64,000 nucleotides of DNA, taken from NCBI GenBank assembly GCA_963802945.1, contig CAWDKY010000015.1, positions 344,919-408,918 of the forward strand. The letters run 5' to 3'. Position numbers and translations under genes: made by a program. The notes beneath the pieces were generated by a model, which saw only the letters and a program-made list of their open reading frames with translations, was not told the DNA's origin and searched no databases. Below, piece by piece: positions 10,056 to 64,000 of this stretch. This DNA comes from an uncultured delta proteobacterium. GTDB lineage: Bacteria; Desulfobacterota; RBG-13-43-22. Numbering within the stretch: the first letter of the stretch is position 1; each line of letters starts with the position of its first letter.

Positions 10056-10279
10056 TTTAACTTTGGTAGCACAACCTTGCTTTTTCTCCTTGACCCTTCA
10101 TCAGGCTTATTTTATGCTTTAACTATTCCCAAAAGTCCTCACTGCATTGACTGCAGGGGAAGAGAGGATAAACCCCCTGGATATTTAGAAGGGACAACAA
10201 TTCATTCTATTTCAGGGCTTCCTTTTAGTGAATGGTTTTCAATGAAGCCCTGATAATAAACTTAAGAAGGAGAAAGCAG

Positions 10280-11957
10280 ATGGCTGAAGTAAGAGCAGGT
10301 AAAATCTTGGTTAAAATACTTAAAGAGGCGGGCGTCAAGTTTTTATCGGGGATTCATGGCGGTCATCTGTGGCCCCTATTGAGTGCCCTTGATGAAGACA
10401 TGAGAATGATTCATCTTCGCCATGAACAGTCAGGACCTTATATTTCGGATGGGTGGGGCAGGACCACGGGCCGTCCCGGGGTATGCTTCGGGACCGCTGG
10501 ACCGGGGATGTACAATATGGTACCCGGTATCGCCCACGCCTTTTTATGCAAAAGTCCGGTGGTGGCCATCGCCGGTCAGCATGAGGCCTTTCATGATGGC
10601 TGGGCCCCATTCCAGGAAGGATACGGGGAAGAGGTCTGCCGGAGCTTCACCAAGTGGTCTAAAAGGATCGTTGATCCCCGGACTATGACCTTCCATCTCC
10701 AGAAGGCCTTGAGGGATGCGGTGGCCTATCCTCCAGGGCCGGTAGTCCTGGAGATCCCGGTGAATGTCCTGGGTAGAAGGGAAGAGGAGGCCAGGCAAAT
10801 AGGCTATATCCCGACGGATCAATGTGCTGATATGAGTAAATCTGTGGCCGATCCGATCCTGGTTGATAAGATCGTACAAATGTTTCTTGAGGCTAAAAGA
10901 CCGGCTATCATCGGGGGAGATGGGATCTACTGGTCGGGGGCCTCGGAAGAATTGAGGGAATTTGTTGAACTGCTGAATATTCCGGTCATCACCAGGCGAA
11001 TGGGAAGAGGGGCGGTTCCCGAGACCCATCCCCTGGCTTTTACCGGTGCTTTCCGGAGACCCATCTTAATGGTGCGGACGTGATCGCCGTCTTTGGGCTG
11101 CGGATGAGCAATCTGGAGCACTATGGCCAACCCCCGACTTACAGTCACCAGGCCAAATATATCCTGGTATCGGAGGCCTATGAAGATCTGGATGCCAGGG
11201 TCCCCACAGAAATCAGGCTCATGGCCAATCCCAGGCTGGTCCTCAGGCAGATGATCGATTGTGCCAAGGATCTGATCAAAGAAACCCCCGAGCGGACCGA
11301 ATGGCTTAAACAGGTAGCCACGGCCAAAGAGGCTGCCCGGAAAAAGCGGGTCGAGATGGTCGAAGGGGTACGTGAGCGCCAGGCCCATCAATCCGCATTT
11401 TCTGGCCCAGGAGGTCGTGGATTTTCTGGATGACAGCGCCACCATTATCCTTGGATTCCTATTCCATGGCCGGTTTTACCACCGACAAGATCGATGCCAA
11501 ATTCGCCGGGCAGGTCCTGGATGCGGGCACGGACGGAGGGGTCGGCCACTCGGTGGGGATAGCCATAGGCGCCCAGATGGGCAGACCCGGGAAGCAGGTG
11601 CTGGCCTTGCTGGGAGACGGCGGTTTAGGGGTCGCCGGATTCGATATTGAAACCGCCGCCAGGTACAAAATTCCGGCCGTGTACCTCCTTTTCAACAACA
11701 GCTCCTGGATAAGCACGGAGTTTCAGAAGACGACTTTACCCAAGGTGGATTCCTGGGGGATGCTGCCCGATATTCGATACGATAAGATGTTTGCCGAGGT
11801 GGGCTGCCACACCGAGTTTGTTACCGAACCGGAGCAGATCCGCCCGGCCCTGGAGCGGTCTTTTAATTCCGGGAAGACTTCCCTGATCAATGTTATTCCC
11901 GACAATACGATTTTACCTCCACAGATAGGCGTAAGCCAGGCCAGGGCACGCGAGTAG
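10280..11957 (+). pseudogene. ThDP-dependent enzyme (acetolactate synthase / oxalyl-CoA decarboxylase superfamily) interrupted by three frameshifts
   Basis: The Pyr domain (10280-11083), middle domain (11080-11433) and PP domain with GDGG...NNSSW (11430-11957) lie in three different frames. I located joins near 11066-11070 (TTAAT), 11372-11385 and 11453-11454 (GG). RBS AAGGAG precedes ATG at 10280. Confidence 0.75.
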
Positions 11958-13435: not shown

Positions 13436-14613
13436 ATGGGTCTGCCATTGGAAGGAATAAGGGTCGTAGATTTTACCCAGTATCAACAGGGAACGGTCTG
13501 CACGGAGATGCTGGCCGACTGGGGAGCGGATGTAATCAAGATAGAGCCCCGCAATATCGGTGAACCGGGCAGGGGAGGAAACGCCTGGGGGCCTAAAGGT
13601 GTGCCCGTTTATTTTGAGGCTTATAACCGCAACAAGAGGAGCATGACCATAGACCTTAAGAAAGAGAAGGGCAAGGAGATCGTCTATAAACTGGTAAAAA
13701 CAGCAGATCTATTTGCCCAGAACTTCCGCCCTGGTGTGGCCGAACGCCTGGGTTTTGGGTATAAAGCCTTGTCCGAGATCAACCCCAGGATTATCTATCT
13801 GAGCGGGTCGGGTTTTGGCCTGAAAGGTCCCATGTGGGACCGTCCCGGATTCGATTCCGTGGGCCAGGCCATGGGGGGACTCATGAGCATCAACGCCCAG
13901 CCCGGTATGACCGAGCATATGGTAGGGACTGGAATCGGCGACCAGACAGGGGGTTTCCTGCTCAGCTGGGGGGCCTTGCTGGCCTTGATCGATCGTGAAC
14001 GGACCGGGAAAGGTCAGGAAGTTGATGTTTCTCTGATAGGCAGTGTGATCGCTTTACAAAGTTCGACCTTCCTGGCCCACCTTTTGACCGGCCATGTCCC
14101 AGAAAAACGAAGGGGTCGAATCACCACCACGGTCTTTGCCAGCAGCTTCACAGCCAAGGACGGCAAGTCTTTCATCATCCAGACCGTCGGCGCGGAAAAA
14201 AGGGACAAGGTCTTTGAACTGGCAGGTCTGGACAAAGACCCCAGGTTTGATACCAAGGAAAAAGGCGCCAAAATGAAGATGAAATGTTTAAGGCCTTTGA
14301 TGCCGTCTTTGCCACCAAGACCCGTGATGAATGGCTGAAGATTCTGGTGGAGGCTGATATCGTCTGCGCCCCGGTTTACAGCTACCCTGAGGTGGCCAGT
14401 GATCCTCAGGTGTTGGCCAATGAATATGTTGTTGAGATAAACCACCCGACAGAGGGTTCAGCCAGAATTATCGGTAATCCTATCCACCTCAGCCGATGTG
14501 AGGCCAGGACCGGCGTAGCCCCTCTATTGGGACAGCATACAGAAGAGATATTTAAAGAGGCAGGATATTCCTCGGAAGAGATCGCCGCCTTCAGAAAGGA
14601 AGAAGTGATTTGA
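13436..14613 (+). pseudogene. Family III (CaiB/BaiF/Frc-type) CoA-transferase with one frameshift in an A-run
   Basis: The N-terminus LEGIRVVDFTQYQQG...GADVIKIEP is diagnostic. The C-terminal part continues in ORF 14284-14613 in another frame. The join is at AAAA 14270-14273, where one more A would restore ...KGAKNEDEMFKAFD. Confidence 0.8.
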
Positions 14614-16340: not shown

Positions 16341-17597
16341 ATGAACTTTTCCAATGAATACAATAAGGAACAGAAAGAATTCGCTAAAGAAGTTCGCACC
16401 TGGCTGAAGAATAACGTCCCTAAGGGACTCATCAAGCCCAGGAGTATTATGAAGATAAGCCGCGAACAATGGGAGATGCGACGCGATCTGTGCCGCAAAC
16501 TCGGAGAGAAAGGATGGTTGTATCCATCTTATTCACAGGAATACGGGGGGGGCGGCCTTGACGGAGACAAAGCCGCTGTTCTGTATATTGAGATGGCCAA
16601 ACAGGAGTTGAGCCTTCCCCCTGTATACGACTCAGGCAAACTGGCGGCACCGACCTTAATGGCCTGTGCAACGGATGAGCAAAAAAAACGTCTGCTTCCG
16701 CCCATACTCAAAGGCGAAGCGATCACCTGGCAGCTTTTCACCGAACCGGAGGCCGGTACGGACGAAGCTAACCAGCAGACCAATGCCCTGCGCTCAGTCC
16801 AAGAAAAAGATTATTTCATCGTCAACGGCAGTAAAATATTTGTCGGTGGGCTTTACGCCCCACCCGATCAATTTTTGCTTCTAACCCGAAGCAGTCTTGA
16901 AGCACCCAGGCATCAGAACCTGGCCATGTTTCTGGCCCCGGCCAATTTGACCGGTATTCAAATTTATCCGCTTGATCTTTTCCCAGAGGGCACGCTTGCC
17001 CAGGTCTGTTATCAATCCGCGGACAGCGCGCCGGGGGTCAAACATTCCGTATTTTTTGAAGATGTCAAGGTCCATGAATCCTACCTGATCGGCGGGGATC
17101 AGGACGGCTGGAAAGTCACCAACGCTACCTTGACGGTTGAACATGGAGACAGGGATAGCGACCATGCCGGTACCGGCGCCGCCTTTATTCCCCAAAATCA
17201 CCTGGTGGAAAAATTTCTTGACCAGTGCAAAAACAATCCGGAAATAAAGAGCCGGTTACTGGAAAATCCTCATTTGCAAGGGGACATGGTGGAGGCCTAT
17301 ATTGGCGGTCAGATAGAGAGACTTTTTTATATGCGAAACGCCGGTTTGCCCAGGGCCGGGAGGCGCGCCGCTTATGCGGGACCACAAACCAGCTTGTTTA
17401 CAAAAAATTTCGGCTTAAACATGACGAGTTACCTGTCCCAGGTTCTCGGTCCCTATACTCTGACCAGCGATGAGGAGTGGGGTCTGGAGGACGGCCTTTT
17501 TGAAGTCTGCGCACGAAGCGGCCTTTGTCTGGCACCGGGCGGCACCCCTGAGGCCTTGAAAATCATCATATCCCGGGCCTTGCGTATCGGAAGGTAG
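16341..17597 (+). CDS. Acyl-CoA dehydrogenase family protein
   Basis: 418 aa with typical ACAD N-terminal and middle segments (GWLYPSYSQEYGG, LFTEPEAGTD, F.VNGSKIFV). Confidence 0.85.
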   Translation: MNFSNEYNKEQKEFAKEVRTWLKNNVPKGLIKPRSIMKISREQWEMRRDLCRKLGEKGWLYPSYSQEYGGGGLDGDKAAVLYIEMAKQELSLPPVYDSGKLAAPTLMACATDEQKKRLLPPILKGEAITWQLFTEPEAGTDEANQQTNALRSVQEKDYFIVNGSKIFVGGLYAPPDQFLLLTRSSLEAPRHQNLAMFLAPANLTGIQIYPLDLFPEGTLAQVCYQSADSAPGVKHSVFFEDVKVHESYLIGGDQDGWKVTNATLTVEHGDRDSDHAGTGAAFIPQNHLVEKFLDQCKNNPEIKSRLLENPHLQGDMVEAYIGGQIERLFYMRNAGLPRAGRRAAYAGPQTSLFTKNFGLNMTSYLSQVLGPYTLTSDEEWGLEDGLFEVCARSGLCLAPGGTPEALKIIISRALRIGR

Positions 17598-53855: not shown

Positions 53856-53916
53856 ATTACAGGGAACGGTTCTGATTATTTATTATTTCACCTTAAAGAA
53901 ACCGTCCCATTTATCC
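53856..53916 (+). repeat. Hairpin repeat family H, copy 1
   Basis: ATTACAGGGAACGGTTCTGATTATTTATTATTTCACCTTAAAGAAACCGTCCCATTTATCC. Its right end supplies the last codons and the stop of the reductase gene at 53911. Confidence 0.8.
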
Positions 53917-58475: not shown

Positions 58476-58537
58476 AAATAAAGGAGCCGGTCCTGATTAT
58501 TTATTGTTTCGCCTTAAAGAGAACCTTCCCATCTATC
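58476..58537 (+). repeat. Hairpin repeat family H, copy 3
   Basis: AAATAAAGGAGCCGGTCCTGATTATTTATTGTTTCGCCTTAAAGAGAACCTTCCCATCTATC. Confidence 0.8.
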
Positions 58538-60135: not shown

Positions 60136-60872
60136 TCAAGTTTGGTACAGACCGCCATTGACCTGGATGGTTTGTCCGGTCATATATCCATTGCCAACCA
60201 GCATAAGGGCCACATCGGCCACCTCTTCCACGGTCCCGAAACGACCGACCGGAATCCGGTCCGGTCTGGCCTTGATGCCATCACTCATCATATCGGTGAT
60301 GATCAGGGCCGGGCATATGGCATTGACCGTGATCCCCTCCTTGAATAACCGGGAAGCGTAGGAATGGGTGAGGCCCAGGATACCGGCCTTGGAGGCCGCA
60401 TAATGAGGGCCCACAACCCCGCCGACCTGGGCGGCGGTCGAGGACAGGTTGATGATCCTTCCCCATCGCTGGGACCGAAGGCCCGGCAAAACCGCTTGGG
60501 TCACCAGGTAACAGGATTTCAGATTGATCCTGAGCGTTTCGTCCCAGACTTCTTCGGTCATTTCCTCAAGGCCCCGGGGTTTGGCAATCCCGGCATTGTT
60601 TATAAGGATGGATATGGGTCCCAGTTCCATCTCGATGGTTTCTGACCAATCGGCTCACCTCTTCCGCCTGGCTGACATCGGCCTGTACGGCCAGACTGCG
60701 ACGGCCAAGACTTTTGATCTCCGAACTCACCTCCTGGGCCTCGTTTTCATGGGTTTTAAAATTGACCGCCACATCAGCACCGGCTTTGGCCAAGGACACC
60801 GCAATGGCCCGGCCGATTCCCCGACTGGCCCCGGTCACTAAAGCGATCCGGCCGCTTATTTCCGAATGTCAT
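60136..60872 (-). pseudogene. Short-chain dehydrogenase/reductase (FabG-like) with two frameshifts
   Basis: LVTGASRGIGRAIA (60566-60838) and NNAG...YAASKAG...(60136-60630) lie in different frames, with the join near 60630-60645. The only ATG (60872, MTFGNK) is out of frame with the TGASRGIG segment, so there is a second join near 60845-60855. Confidence 0.75.
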
Positions 60873-60895
60873 CTTTTCATCCCTTCTTTATTGAA

Positions 60896-61300
60896 TTAGG
60901 CTTTCGTGAACAGCTCGGGGTTGGCGTATTTGGTAATGTCAATAGCGAAATGGACAAACAAATCCTTTTGGCCCCCGATGGGGAGCCAATAGGAATCCAC
61001 GAACCGTTTACTGGGGGCATAATAGCCGACGGATCTTTTGCCCACCCCTTCTTCCAAAGCCGAATTTCCCAGACACTGTTTATGAATACAATCATCTCCG
61101 GATAATTGATAGCATTTCATTCCCAAGCGAACCCCTCTGTCTCTGGCTGTTTGGTTGAAATCTACAATAGTCCGATCTTTTCTTAAGAGGAAAACAGGAG
61201 TAGGAAACATATCCCACATCAAATGAAAGGCTTTTAAAATCTCCGGATTGACCTCAATATTGTCAGGCTCTTGACTCTTTTCCATTTTTGTTCCTTCCAA
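60896..61300 (-). CDS. Small PAS-like protein, copy 1
   Basis: 134 aa. PVFLLRKDRTIVDFN..A.. resembles a PAS core, and several Cys are present (CYQLSGDDCIHKQC). A duplicate 3' end lies at 63928-64000. Confidence 0.55.
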   Translation of the reverse strand: MEGTKMEKSQEPDNIEVNPEILKAFHLMWDMFPTPVFLLRKDRTIVDFNQTARDRGVRLGMKCYQLSGDDCIHKQCLGNSALEEGVGKRSVGYYAPSKRFVDSYWLPIGGQKDLFVHFAIDITKYANPELFTKA

Positions 61301-61320
61301 TGCTTACCGACCATATAAAA

Positions 61321-61382
61321 ATTAAAGGGGATGGTTCTGATTATTTATTATTTCGCCTTAAAGAGAACCGTCCCATTTATCC
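61321..61382 (+). repeat. Hairpin repeat family H, copy 4
   Basis: ATTAAAGGGGATGGTTCTGATTATTTATTATTTCGCCTTAAAGAGAACCGTCCCATTTATCC. Confidence 0.8.
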
Positions 61383-61437: not shown

Positions 61438-61467
61438 TTGACAGGCCATATTTTCTCCCTCTATACT
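61438..61467 (+). promoter_or_regulatory. Sigma70-like promoter TTGACA-N18-TATACT
   Basis: The TTG used as the start by the ORF track (61438) is the first base of a consensus TTGACA box. TATACT is at 61462-61467. Confidence 0.5.
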
Positions 61468-61518
61468 TCACTCACCCAAAAGAAAATCCAAATCAAAGAT
61501 AAAGAAAGAGAAAATAAC

Positions 61519-62604
61519 GTGAACCAGATTGATCCAATTTACCAGGAATTAGCGGAAAAAATGGGGAGTCCCGATTCAAAAATATTACCCAGAGTACTCC
61601 AGAGGCTGGCTACTCTGGAACAGGCCCAAATCCTGCGCGAAATGCCGGCTTCCTTTGAGGAAATCGCCAAAAAGTTAGGCTTGAGCTTGGAAACAGTGGA
61701 AAAGCTAATGCAAGGGCCGTTTGAAAATGGGGTTATTTTCCATGGCAAGCATGGTTGGCGTATGCCGGCAAACTGGTTTTTCTTACACGACATGGCTGGG
61801 TCATCCGAGTCCAAGTATGACGATGACGTATTTTTTGATTTGATGATGGATGTGCATAATGAGAACATAGAACGGCTGGTAAAACGATTAAAAGAAGCCA
61901 AGGAACCGACTCTGAAGCAAGTGCAGAGAGTAGTTCCCGACTGGAAAGCCATCCAGGGTATACCCGGCGTTCTACCACATGAAAACACATTCGTAGGCTT
62001 TAAAGATGTATCACCGGTCGTTTCGATTAATTGCGCCTGCAAGAGGCTCTACCGTGACAGGAAGTGCAAAGATGATATCCCTCTCCGAGTATGCTTTACT
62101 GCCGGCAGATCCGGAAAGGTGGCTCTCGAACGCGGACTCGGGAGGGAGATCAACCACGATGAATATTTGGAGATTCAGGAGCGAGCTACCGAATATGGAC
62201 TCGTTCATCTTTATCCGAATAATTCCAAAATACCCGACGGGATATGTAACTGCCATCATTGCTGTTGCGGTCAATTCTTGATCAGTGCCCATACGAAGCC
62301 GAATTTTAATCTGCTCTCGATTGCCAAGAGTCGTTTCATTGCGGAAGTGGACCAGGAGAAGTGCAGGGGTTGCAGGAAGTGCGTGGATAAGAGATGCCCG
62401 GTCGGTGCGGCTCAGATGAAATTTTCCCCTGAATATGGTGAGGACCGTGCCTTTATTGATACGGAAGAATGCATTGGCTGCGGACTCTGTGTGCTGACCT
62501 GCCCAACTGGGGCCCGTAGGATGGAGTTAGTCAGACCGCCGGACCATATTCCGGAACCCCGTAACTTTTCTTTATCTGAAATAGTTGCTGATTTAGTGTC
62601 CTAA
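61519..62604 (+). CDS. Fe-S protein with C-terminal 2x[4Fe-4S] ferredoxin domain and Cys-rich middle region
   Basis: CRGCRKCVDKRCP and CIGCGLCVLTCP lie at the C-terminus, and CNCHHCCCG lies upstream of them. I moved the start to the in-frame GTG at 61519, downstream of the predicted promoter. ATG at 61561 is an alternative. Confidence 0.7.
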   Translation: MNQIDPIYQELAEKMGSPDSKILPRVLQRLATLEQAQILREMPASFEEIAKKLGLSLETVEKLMQGPFENGVIFHGKHGWRMPANWFFLHDMAGSSESKYDDDVFFDLMMDVHNENIERLVKRLKEAKEPTLKQVQRVVPDWKAIQGIPGVLPHENTFVGFKDVSPVVSINCACKRLYRDRKCKDDIPLRVCFTAGRSGKVALERGLGREINHDEYLEIQERATEYGLVHLYPNNSKIPDGICNCHHCCCGQFLISAHTKPNFNLLSIAKSRFIAEVDQEKCRGCRKCVDKRCPVGAAQMKFSPEYGEDRAFIDTEECIGCGLCVLTCPTGARRMELVRPPDHIPEPRNFSLSEIVADLVS

Positions 62605-62711
62605 ATTTGGTGCGAACACGACTTATTTCTTCAAAAATTCGAGGGACCATATTTATTTCCAATTTAAAAATTAAATTAGTATGGATGTCCCCCGATTTAG
62701 TCCCGCTTTAA

Positions 62712-62772
62712 ATTAAAGGGGACGGTTCTGATTATTTATTCTTTCGCCTTAAAGACAACCGTCCCCTTTATC
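62712..62772 (+). repeat. Hairpin repeat family H, copy 5
   Basis: ATTAAAGGGGACGGTTCTGATTATTTATTCTTTCGCCTTAAAGACAACCGTCCCCTTTATC. Confidence 0.8.
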
Positions 62773-62800: not shown

Positions 62801-63550
62801 TCAATCTTTAAATCCGAATATTGCACTTTGAATGATTCTGGTTGCCATGATCATTTGTTCTGCCTTCATATAGGCACCACTCATTCTATGTGTCTCTTTT
62901 CTATATTCTCTTGCATGTTCTTCTGACCAGAAGAAAACACACTCAGTTCAGAATGAATCGATAATACTATCGTCTTTGAGTTTGAATAAATCTATATCCG
63001 GTACAAAGATTACCGGTTCGCATCCTCCGTCCTTGACCTTATAGCGAAGATCACTGTCAATCTCGATTTCCATCGGACAAGAGCAGTGGGCACATTCGGT
63101 TTCAATTTGTACCATCAGGTGTTCGTTTCGTAATTTCCCTTGCACGAAGGGCGTTGCAAATGCATCTGCCGCTCAGGCGGCATACAATTTTTCACCTGTG
63201 CTAAAAGAAATTTTGTGTGGGGTTTTATCAACCGTGACCGGATAGGCCCACACCACATCTCCCTTTCTGTTTCTATAGAGGAAGGTCATGCGCTTTTCCA
63301 GATAATCCAATGCGGTTTTAACACCATCAACCGAAAAACCAATCTCGTTCGATATGAATTCCGGGGATAAAGGCTTACTTTGACGCGGGAGTTCTCTTAC
63401 CACGAAATGATGAATCAGACGATATTCCTCGGATAGAGCGCCTTGTTCTTTTTCAAATTTTCTTCTTCCTTTAGCTATTTGTTTCTGCCATAAAAATGGC
63501 GGGACTTTAATTATATACCGCCACATTCCAAGCATGAGTTTATTACTCAC
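62801..63550 (-). CDS. MerB-like (alkylmercury lyase family) protein, predicted selenoprotein with two Sec (UGA) codons
   Basis: A single reverse frame runs from GTG at 63550 to TGA at 62801-62803, with in-frame TGA at 63173-63175 and 62948-62950. It reads ...GEKLYAA-U-AADAFATPF...IIDSF-U-TECVFFWSEEHAREY...FGFKD*. The track lists only two pieces (63173-63550 and 62948-63145). The third piece (62804-62947) has no ATG, yet it still matches the MerB C-terminus. Confidence 0.7.
62918..62935 (-). promoter_or_regulatory. SECIS-like hairpin downstream of the second UGA
   Basis: On the mRNA it reads UUCUUCU-GGUC-AGAAGAA, a 7-bp stem extendable by further pairs. The GGUC loop starts 19 nt after the UGA. 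Confidence 0.6.
63140..63159 (-). promoter_or_regulatory. SECIS-like hairpin downstream of the first UGA
   Basis: On the mRNA it reads UUGCA(A)CG-CCCUU-CGUGCAA, a 7 bp stem with one bulged A, starting 13 nt after the UGA. Confidence 0.4.
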
Positions 63551-63694
63551 AGAAATTTTCCTTTCAATCTATTTGAGGTTTCAAATGTTTAGTCGCATAA
63601 AATTTCAGCTAACCTGCCGCGCCAATGACCCACCCTTGGCCCTTTTCCAATTTTAAATGATATCGGAACCTAAAGTAGAACAACGGTCTTGTTT

Positions 63695-63757
63695 AATTAA
63701 TTGGGAGGATTCTGATTATTTATTATTTCGCCTTAAAGAGAACCACCCCATTTATTC
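63695..63757 (+). repeat. Hairpin repeat family H, copy 6
   Basis: AATTAATTGGGAGGATTCTGATTATTTATTATTTCGCCTTAAAGAGAACCACCCCATTTATTC. Confidence 0.8.
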
Positions 63758-63927
63758 TATGCCAAATATAATTGGGAATAAAATATCGATTAGCTCCTGG
63801 CATCGCTGTTCTGCTTAAACCGTCATACCCTGAATGGAATTTCAATCTGTTGTCCCGGTCCGACCCTTATTTGATTATTGAAATCTCAGTTATGTCAACA
63901 GAATTTTCAAGGTAACCTTAAATTGGA

Positions 63928-64000
63928 TTAGGCCTTCGTGAACAGCTCGGGGTTGGCGTATTTGGTAATGTCAATAGCGAAATGGACAAACAAATCCTTT
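63928..64000 (-). CDS. Small PAS-like protein, copy 2 (3' end only; runs off the window)
   Basis: 63931-64000 matches 60898-60967 at 69 of 70 positions. The single difference is synonymous (AAA/AAG Lys) in the ...FTKA* frame. Confidence 0.6.
   Translation of the reverse strand, partial: KDLFVHFAIDITKYANPELFTKA

Follow-up and report, generated by a model that had tools for sequence, protein, structure and literature searches.

The carbon-metal bond cleavage carried out by the lyase MerB relies on two thiolates and an aspartate. One selenoprotein of this kind has been described: SaoL (NF040728; Haft & Gwadz 2022/2023) is a MerB-like organometallic lyase with one selenocysteine (Sec), and a 2026 review also gives it with one Sec. 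As far as found, SaoL is the only MerB-like selenoprotein in the literature; the main text of the deep-Sep and BSepDB papers mentions no two-Sec MerB-like family, and an earlier account of such a family elsewhere is possible. The present analysis concerns a MerB-like gene on the minus strand of a 64,000-nucleotide (nt) stretch of an uncultured delta proteobacterium (assembly GCA_963802945.1, contig CAWDKY010000015.1, positions 344,919 to 408,918), hereafter the window. The gene carries two in-frame UGA codons, and in its product both thiolates of the MerB site would be replaced by selenolates. It is almost certainly a genuine double selenoprotein gene, with both UGAs read as Sec, as judged from comparison of the sequence with its relatives.

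Reading frame and coding signal

From 63550 down to 62801 the minus strand holds a single frame of 250 codons (249 codons plus the stop), in which the only internal stops are TGA-1 (63173-63175) and TGA-2 (62948-62950). An earlier note on this DNA had described such a frame and had stated that two of its three pieces look like small separate open reading frames (ORFs), the third being unlisted; sequence, translation and ORF list agree with this, since piece 1 is listed as a 125-residue ORF (63173..63550), piece 2 as a 65-residue ORF (62948..63145), and piece 3 lies in no ORF of at least 30 residues. The motifs quoted there, LYAA-U-AADAF and IIDSF-U-TECVFFWSEEHAREY, are also present in the translation. 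The further statement that piece 3 lacks a start codon holds for its conserved first 21 codons, TECVFFWSEEHAREYRKETHR, and fails for the remainder, where in-frame ATGs are present; because these begin only at codon 22, the opening of the piece is not translatable on its own. At the other end of the frame, the GTG start at 63550 agrees with homolog N-termini of the type MxxKLMxGxWR.

The coding signal continues across both TGAs. Among the related loci, pairwise differences at codon positions 1/2/3 are 0.34/0.23/0.59 in segment 1, 0.37/0.24/0.60 in segment 2 and 0.31/0.27/0.64 in segment 3, and amino-acid identity is 0.53-0.58 in each of the three. For the last segment (62804-62947), where the earlier note had regarded a coding signal as decisive, the codon-position pattern is thus like that of the first two, and the FFWSEEHAREYR motif, G225, Y227, Q241 and F245 are invariant or nearly so. 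Elsewhere TGA serves as an ordinary stop codon, terminating 15 of 39 long ORFs in the window and, at the homologous C-terminus, 45 of 83 family genes, which rules out a code in which TGA is reassigned.

MerB fold and catalytic positions

The read-through product, with U written as C, matches the Pfam MerB model (PF03243) over residues 107-235 with 52.8 bits (cut-off 27), and its homologs in the protein database bear a precomputed PF03243 annotation. A sequence search of the Protein Data Bank (PDB) matched MerB2 (5c17), in whose sequence TGA-1 aligns with the Cys in LFAWCA and TGA-2 with that in GGTCKQIHYF. Alignment by hhalign with E. coli MerB (probability 95.5%; the MerB sequence used has correct Cys96 and Asp99 numbering and is one residue short before Cys159) pairs LYAA-U-AAD with LYAW-C96-ALD99, IIDSF-U with VRQSF-C159, and Cys153 with the structural Cys117. 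When an AlphaFold2 model (pLDDT 88.5, pTM 0.86) of family member P0003, which is 57% identical to the window protein, was compared with the PDB by Foldseek, the only significant matches were 11 MerB/MerB2 chains (probability 1.0, TM 0.57-0.81 normalised by target), the next match having E = 0.046. In these comparisons the catalytic triad columns Cys96/Asp99/Cys159 would be occupied by U126/D129/U201, Sec replacing Cys, and the placement proposed by eye in the earlier note, with both TGAs on catalytic Cys columns and Asp99 kept, is upheld by Pfam, 5c17, hhalign and Foldseek. The product is predicted to be a MerB-fold protein with a Sec/Asp/Sec site in place of Cys96/Asp99/Cys159. The fold-bearing region is preceded by an approximately 40-residue family-specific extension, N-terminal to the winged-helix-like domain.

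The protein falls outside the NCBIfam models of the described enzymes. The cut-offs for canonical MerB (NF033555 / NF009710, EC 4.99.1.2) were missed, with 47.7 bits versus 193 and 41 versus 200, as was that of the SaoL model, with 41.5 bits versus 140, and no other NCBIfam model (release 20) fits. A match to NF041072, 'FtrB family double-selenoprotein', was at chance level (E = 0.1, 12.4 bits) and was discarded.

Conservation of the two TGA codons

A scan of 185,579 species-representative genomes gave 416 stretches encoding a relative; 83 fetched relatives and the window make up the 84 loci compared here. Both sites are TGA in 84/84 loci and fall in the same alignment columns, at 52-82% protein identity to the window, and the two sites lie 74 codons apart in 80/83 loci. 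Among the best 80 of the 416 stretches nearly all come from metagenome-assembled genomes of Desulfobacterota (Desulfobacterales, Syntrophales/Smithellaceae, Desulfomonilaceae, Desulfatiglandales), and a few from Nitrospirota, Abyssobacteria and Omnitrophota. The earlier note had argued that two nonsense codons lying exactly on the two catalytic Cys codons are unlikely by chance, and their recurrence in the same columns of 83 related loci besides the window strengthens that argument; at neither site do these homologs come to a genuine end, for the frame runs on in every one of them.

Protein databases give a different picture of the same family. In a search of 5.8 billion proteins, 120 homologs were found, 66 of which terminate exactly at ...YAA, the residue preceding site 1, while four have Cys at site 1 and terminate at ...IIDxF, the residue preceding site 2. 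Another 45, all 'full-length' and all from short metagenome contigs, show W at both sites. These are Joint Genome Institute (JGI) metagenome entries, and their W residues stem from gene calling under a code with TGA=Trp; for one entry (L001) the underlying DNA shows stop codons at both sites. This calling artefact, seen among P0001-P0050, exposes full-length selenoproteins and could be mined deliberately. An exhaustive profile search (E <= 0.001) gave 889 clusters at 50% identity, most of them 125-residue fragments stopping at site 1, and the NCBI name for family members is 'hypothetical protein'.

Other residues at the two sites are confined to minor forms. Cys/Sec forms occur in L084-L086, with TGT at site 1, and in P0122-P0130, and one GGT/TTA form is known (P0027; locus L087). 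Distant members include Ser/Cys proteins (P0121 and P0125, with Cys at site 2) and proteins in which both catalytic residues are lost (P0126, P0127, P0131, P0175 and P0185). No close Cys/Cys form was seen among the family members examined. The comparison of Cys with TGA at these columns, which the earlier note had proposed, thus gives TGA in all the loci compared, and Cys at site 1 in L084-L086, at site 2 in P0121 and P0125, and in MerB itself; judged by its codons, the family is overwhelmingly of the predicted Sec/Sec type. The variants with Cys at site 1 (L084-L086) and with GGT/TTA (L087) are probably recent conversions. S-adenosylmethionine-dependent methyltransferases of TPMT, TehB or UbiE type are encoded near three of these variant genes, at 8944-9618 in L084, 1882-2724 in L085 and 407-1015 in L087, and are not conserved beside the Sec/Sec form; selenium and tellurium compounds are substrates of bacterial TPMT and TehB.

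Hairpins downstream of the TGA codons

The coding sequence directly after each TGA can form a hairpin (Table 1), and both hairpins look like bacterial selenocysteine insertion sequence (SECIS) elements. In the bSECISearch model such an element is reportedly a stem-loop right after the UGA whose apical loop contains G/U and lies at a distance of about 16-37 nt, and the loop distances found here, 19 nt (GGUC) and 26 nt (CGUGC), fall within that geometry. The hairpin UUCUUCU-GGUC-AGAAGAA that the earlier note had reported 19 nt after UGA-2 is present, conserved and covarying in the family, whose consensus is GYGU-N-UUCUUCU-GGUC-AGAAGAA-N-AYGC; 99.3% of cells are paired, compared with 40-63% when the partner is slid. 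Of the sequences, 64 close this loop with a U-A pair, 12 with C-G and 3 with U-G, and none with C-A. The C-G form combines a Trp to Arg change (UGG->CGG) with a synonymous UCA->UCG change, approximately 12 state changes of the pair are counted on a rough tree, and several C-G sequences are nearest to U-A neighbours; the compensatory switches appear to be repeated and independent.

For SECIS-1 the proportion of paired cells is 93.4%, versus 33-56% with the partner slid, and compensatory changes from G-C to U-A and from C-G to U-A are seen. The window sequence itself pairs only over the 5-bp core CCCUU/AAGGG, and a 3-bp mini-hairpin (63164-63155) precedes the main hairpin. With both hairpins, all shuffled and slid controls remained below the observed pairing. 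The bulged hairpin that the earlier note had drawn after UGA-1 does exist in the window, but it is not the structure best supported in the family: it is 90.6% pairable, yet 181 of 500 shuffles reach its covariation score, and CCCUU/AAGGG was preferred.

Constraint is also visible in the choice of codons. In SECIS-1 the top codons for T-P-F-V-Q-G have frequencies of 0.86 (ACG), 0.99 (CCC), 1.00 (TTC), 1.00 (GTG), 0.82 (CAA) and 1.00 (GGG); in SECIS-2, F-F-W-S-E-E is written with TTC (1.00), TTC (1.00), TGG, TCA (0.80, the rest being TCG), GAA (1.00) and GAA (0.89), whereas equally invariant residues elsewhere in the gene have a top codon of only 0.3-0.75. Given the same amino acid, codons differ at a rate of 0.12 in SECIS-1 and 0.25 in SECIS-2, as opposed to 0.50-0.58 elsewhere. 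The claim of the earlier note that Sec is inserted at both catalytic positions therefore finds support in the catalytic columns, the conservation of the TGAs, the coding character of the last segment and this constraint at the RNA level.

Proposed mechanism and alternative explanations

Taken as a whole, the locus is quite probably best explained as an intact gene for a double-Sec MerB-fold protein in which each UGA has its own SECIS element. SelB and tRNA-Sec would insert Sec at both UGAs, each insertion being directed by the downstream hairpin in the coding sequence. A soft metal or metalloid would be bound between the two selenolates, and Asp129 would protonate the carbon and break the carbon-metal bond as in MerB; the natural substrate might be methylmercury or another organometal. 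Selenolates are better nucleophiles than thiolates and bind mercury more tightly, and such tight binding would suit very low substrate levels. That the diselenolate site performs carbon-metal lyase chemistry is, by analogy with MerB, a matter of roughly even chances.

Several observations weigh against this explanation or parts of it. Folded singly, the 60 nt after each UGA reach no greater stability than shuffled sequences do (z = 0.37 and -0.34), so that the case for the hairpins rests on the comparative data, and with permissive thresholds a comparison of the gene region with Rfam returned chance matches only and no SECIS family. The Cys/Sec loci L084-L086 and the GGT/TTA locus L087 still keep SECIS-1 and SECIS-2-like hairpins, and part of the nucleotide conservation after the TGAs could serve something else. 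No selA, selB, selC or selD was found in the 64-kb window or in the flanks of the loci. The window contains no tRNA and no tRNA-Sec was found in 60 loci with short flanks, the latter result being uninformative because the flanks are short; in favour of Sec decoding, Desulfobacterota have the largest known bacterial selenoproteomes. As to function, the neighbourhoods of 82 loci hold no conserved partner genes that would hint at a substrate. Since mercury is held more strongly by selenium than by sulfur, it is difficult to see how the product Hg(II) would be let go without MerA as a partner.

Three other ways of reading the two TGAs have been weighed. Seen in the window alone, the three-piece gene, with a frameshifted short-chain dehydrogenase (SDR) gene for a neighbour, could pass for a merB-like gene in decay that acquired two chance nonsense mutations; however, identical TGAs persist in 84/84 loci across orders and phyla, the frame is intact with no other stops, and purifying selection is seen in all three segments, so that a pseudogene is ruled out by the comparative data and its probability is practically nil. 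Decoding of UGA as a standard amino acid, by an alternative code (TGA = Trp or Gly) or by near-cognate read-through, would fit the JGI calls with W at both sites in 45 homologs, and is nevertheless highly improbable, given the ordinary use of TGA as a stop in window and family, the standard code of the Desulfobacterota and Nitrospirota hosts, the position of the TGAs on metal-ligand Cys columns with conserved hairpins after them, and the existence of Cys (TGT) variants at site 1; the alternative code was rejected on these comparative data. It is also conceivable that the 125-residue N-terminal winged-helix protein is the main product, through termination at UGA-1, and that the full-length form is rare or selenium-dependent: bacterial Sec insertion competes with termination, two UGAs multiply the loss, and gene callers everywhere predict the 125-residue product. 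This is improbable, since protein-level conservation extends over the remaining two thirds in every locus, with a codon-position pattern like that of the first third, the MerB catalytic domain sits downstream, and a stand-alone N-terminal gene would not keep 124 more codons and a second TGA in 84/84 loci.

The main functional rival accepts Sec insertion and the MerB fold and differs in the role assigned to the protein, which would not be a lyase; instead it would be a high-affinity binder or chaperone of a metal or metalloid (for example a sink for Hg(II) or methylmercury), or a redox protein cycling between a diselenide or selenenylsulfide and the selenols. The neighbourhood lacks a conserved merA or any other partner that could accept the product, and very strong Hg-Se bonding would hinder turnover. 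The U-x-x-C motif at site 2 in the window's clade (UTEC) and a conserved C-x-x-C (Cys153 99%, Cys156 89%) are typical of redox proteins, and the distant relatives without both catalytic residues persist, so the fold has non-catalytic uses. On the other hand, the Asp at +3 from Sec-1 is invariant and the MerB triad complete, which would be needless for plain binding or redox cycling, and the +3 position of site 2 is Ser in most members (70%) rather than Cys. A non-lyase role is possible and rather doubtful. If the protein is a lyase, the conserved C153-x-x-C156, Cys183 and the clade's U-x-x-C may, speculatively, be the thiols to which the metal is handed off.

Genomic context

As a piece of an anaerobe's chromosome the window is unremarkable; it has genes for thiolases, acyl-coenzyme A (CoA) dehydrogenases, CoA transferases and ligases, a BcrAD/HGD-D-type dehydratase, ferredoxins and an old-yellow-enzyme-type reductase. 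The MerB-like gene is convergent with the gene for a 388-residue 4Fe-4S protein (61438..62604). No mer-related Pfam domains were found among approximately 40 window ORFs, and clustering of the neighbours in 82 loci gave no conserved merA/merR/merT/merP, transporter or efflux gene, in agreement with the earlier remark that merA, merR and merT are missing nearby. The gene appears to stand alone as a unit and, with neither merA nor merR, merT or merP beside it, does not belong to a mercury-resistance operon of the classical kind. Its commonest neighbour, in 22/82 loci and not in the window, is a MarR-family regulator gene (approximately 150 residues) directly upstream on the same strand, approximately 0.5-0.9 kb upstream of the gene in the related loci L004-L083; it is a candidate for a dedicated regulator. 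PAS kinases (17) and a 4HBT thioesterase (11) also recur in these 82 loci. A scan of the window for in-frame TGAs in further selenoprotein genes gave nothing convincing.

Table 1. Features of the MerB-like gene and adjoining elements (positions within the window)
Feature	Coordinates	Strand	Remarks
Predicted double-Sec selenoprotein gene	62801..63550	-	GTG start 63550-63548, TGA stop 62803-62801; homologous to family members over full length
Ribosome-binding site GAAAGGAAAA	63556..63565	-	AGGA core 63562-63559, 8 nt 5' of GTG; read from the sequence
N-terminal winged-helix-like domain, approximately residues 41-106	63233..63430	-	AlphaFold2 secondary structure; weak DUF4423 match; aligned to MerB N-terminal domain
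MerB catalytic-domain match, residues 107-235	62846..63232	-	Pfam PF03243; Foldseek to MerB structures, TM 0.72-0.81 normalised by target
UGA-1, proposed Sec codon, residue 126 (MerB Cys96 position)	63173..63175	-	TGA in 84/84 loci; MerB2 and MerB alignments
GAT, Asp129, +3 from Sec-1 (MerB proton donor Asp99)	63164..63166	-	Invariant in family alignments; aligned to Asp99
Proposed SECIS-1, (CG)CCCUU-CGUGC-AAGGG(CG)	63135..63164	-	Loop 26 nt after UGA-1; encodes TPFVQG
UGA-2, proposed Sec codon, residue 201 (MerB Cys159 position)	62948..62950	-	TGA in 84/84 loci; alignments
Proposed SECIS-2, GUGU-U-UUCUUCU-GGUC-AGAAGAA-C-AUGC	62914..62939	-	GGUC loop 62928-62925, 19 nt after UGA-2; encodes VFFWSEEHA
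63-nt palindromic repeat copy between the 3' side of the MerB-like gene and the convergent Fe-S gene	62710..62772	.	Possible terminator
Second copy of the 63-nt repeat, upstream of the MerB-like gene	63694..63756	.	Same element as at 62710..62772

Both sides of the gene carry a palindromic repeat of approximately 63 nt, which occurs five times in the window (53868-53899, 58489-58520, 61319-61381 and the two copies in Table 1), with zero matches expected by chance. The copies are always intergenic and always in one orientation, with the core GGTTCTGATTATTTATTnTTTCGCCTTAAAGA and the inverted arms GGGGAyGG / CCGTCCCC; they look like a repetitive extragenic palindromic (REP) or miniature inverted-repeat transposable (MITE) type of element or a shared terminator. 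At the very end of the window, 79 nt (63922-64000) repeat positions 60890-60968 at 97% identity, that is, the 3' end of a 134-residue ORF (60896..61300, minus strand) with the C-terminus KDLFVHFAIDITKYANPELFTKA, no Pfam match and a PAS-like appearance by eye; the MerB-like gene thus has a paralog of this ORF immediately upstream of it. The FabG-like SDR gene at 60136-60895 (minus strand) is frameshifted, having a TGASRGIG N-terminal part and, in another frame, a C-terminal part of 164 residues that covers positions 69-235 of the adh_short_C2 profile; either the gene has decayed to a pseudogene or the assembly is in error here. Partial Pfam matches were obtained at 13436-14437, 10232-11433 and 16341-17597, all on the plus strand. 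Among them are a CoA_transf_3 match covering positions 1-273 of 366, after which come a TGA and 34 further in-frame codons, a thiamine pyrophosphate (TPP) enzyme with N and M domains only, and an acyl-CoA dehydrogenase with N and M domains only; the explanation for these metabolic genes may be gene splitting, a frameshift or an unusual arrangement of domains.

Significance

The family is not rare, with 416 stretches and 889 clusters, yet it is nearly always cut to a 125-residue 'hypothetical protein', and methods that need Cys homologs or a domain match before the first TGA miss it. The two proposed SECIS elements within one coding sequence would also shape the protein, the FFWSEE and PFVQG motifs being frozen at the nucleotide level. 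The hosts are sediment anaerobes that drive mercury and metalloid cycling, and the identity of the substrate could bear on methylmercury turnover; Desulfobacterota and Nitrospirota include the main mercury-methylating guilds. It may be suggested, as an unlikely extension of the present data, that this diselenolate MerB-like family is the enzyme by which methylmercury or other organometals are broken down in anoxic sediments independently of mer operons. If so, the two selenolates would give a much higher affinity at trace substrate than the MerB dithiolate, and the gene would be a marker for a process whose enzyme stayed unknown for decades.

Comparison with known systems

SaoL is similar to the window protein in its MerB fold and PF03243 match, in the Sec at the Cys159 site and the retained Asp, in its restriction to anaerobes and its truncation at the TGA in databases, and in its location outside classical mer operons. 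The two differ at the active site: in SaoL the Sec lies in a C-U dipeptide and the Cys96 site holds Cys, whereas the window family has predicted Sec at both sites and F-U-x-x-S/C with no C-U, the motif in the window protein itself being F-U-T-E-C. They differ too in their surroundings, since SaoL belongs to a nine-gene SAO locus (the SaoABP ABC transporter, SaoE, SaoC and others), mostly in Firmicutes and spirochaetes, while the family described here is represented by a lone gene, mostly in Desulfobacterota, with no SAO-type neighbourhood in the 82 loci. With MerB (E. coli R831b, PDB 3F0O/3F0P; B. megaterium MerB2, 5C17) the window protein shares the fold, the N-terminal winged-helix-like domain and the triad positions; it departs from MerB in that both thiols would be selenols, in an identity of only about 14-20%, in the additional N-terminal extension of approximately 40 residues and in its lack of mer neighbours.

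For the RNA elements the closest known case is the SECIS of E. coli fdhF, in which a GGUC loop follows the UGA after 18 intervening nt. As in elements of the fdhF type, the hairpins described here lie in the coding sequence directly 3' of the UGA, SECIS-2 has the GGUC loop, and GU is present in both loops; SECIS-1 differs in standing farther away (26 nt) and in having CGUGC as a loop of 5 nt, an obvious bulged U is missing, and the SelB binding is a predicted one. Double selenoproteins as such are already recognised by NCBI curators in NF041072, where one mRNA also carries two UGA-Sec codons and the protein has an unrelated fold. As far as found, what the present family adds is the double-Sec form and a separate, large and unannotated group of MerB-like proteins, beside the MerB-like selenoprotein with one Sec that was already known.

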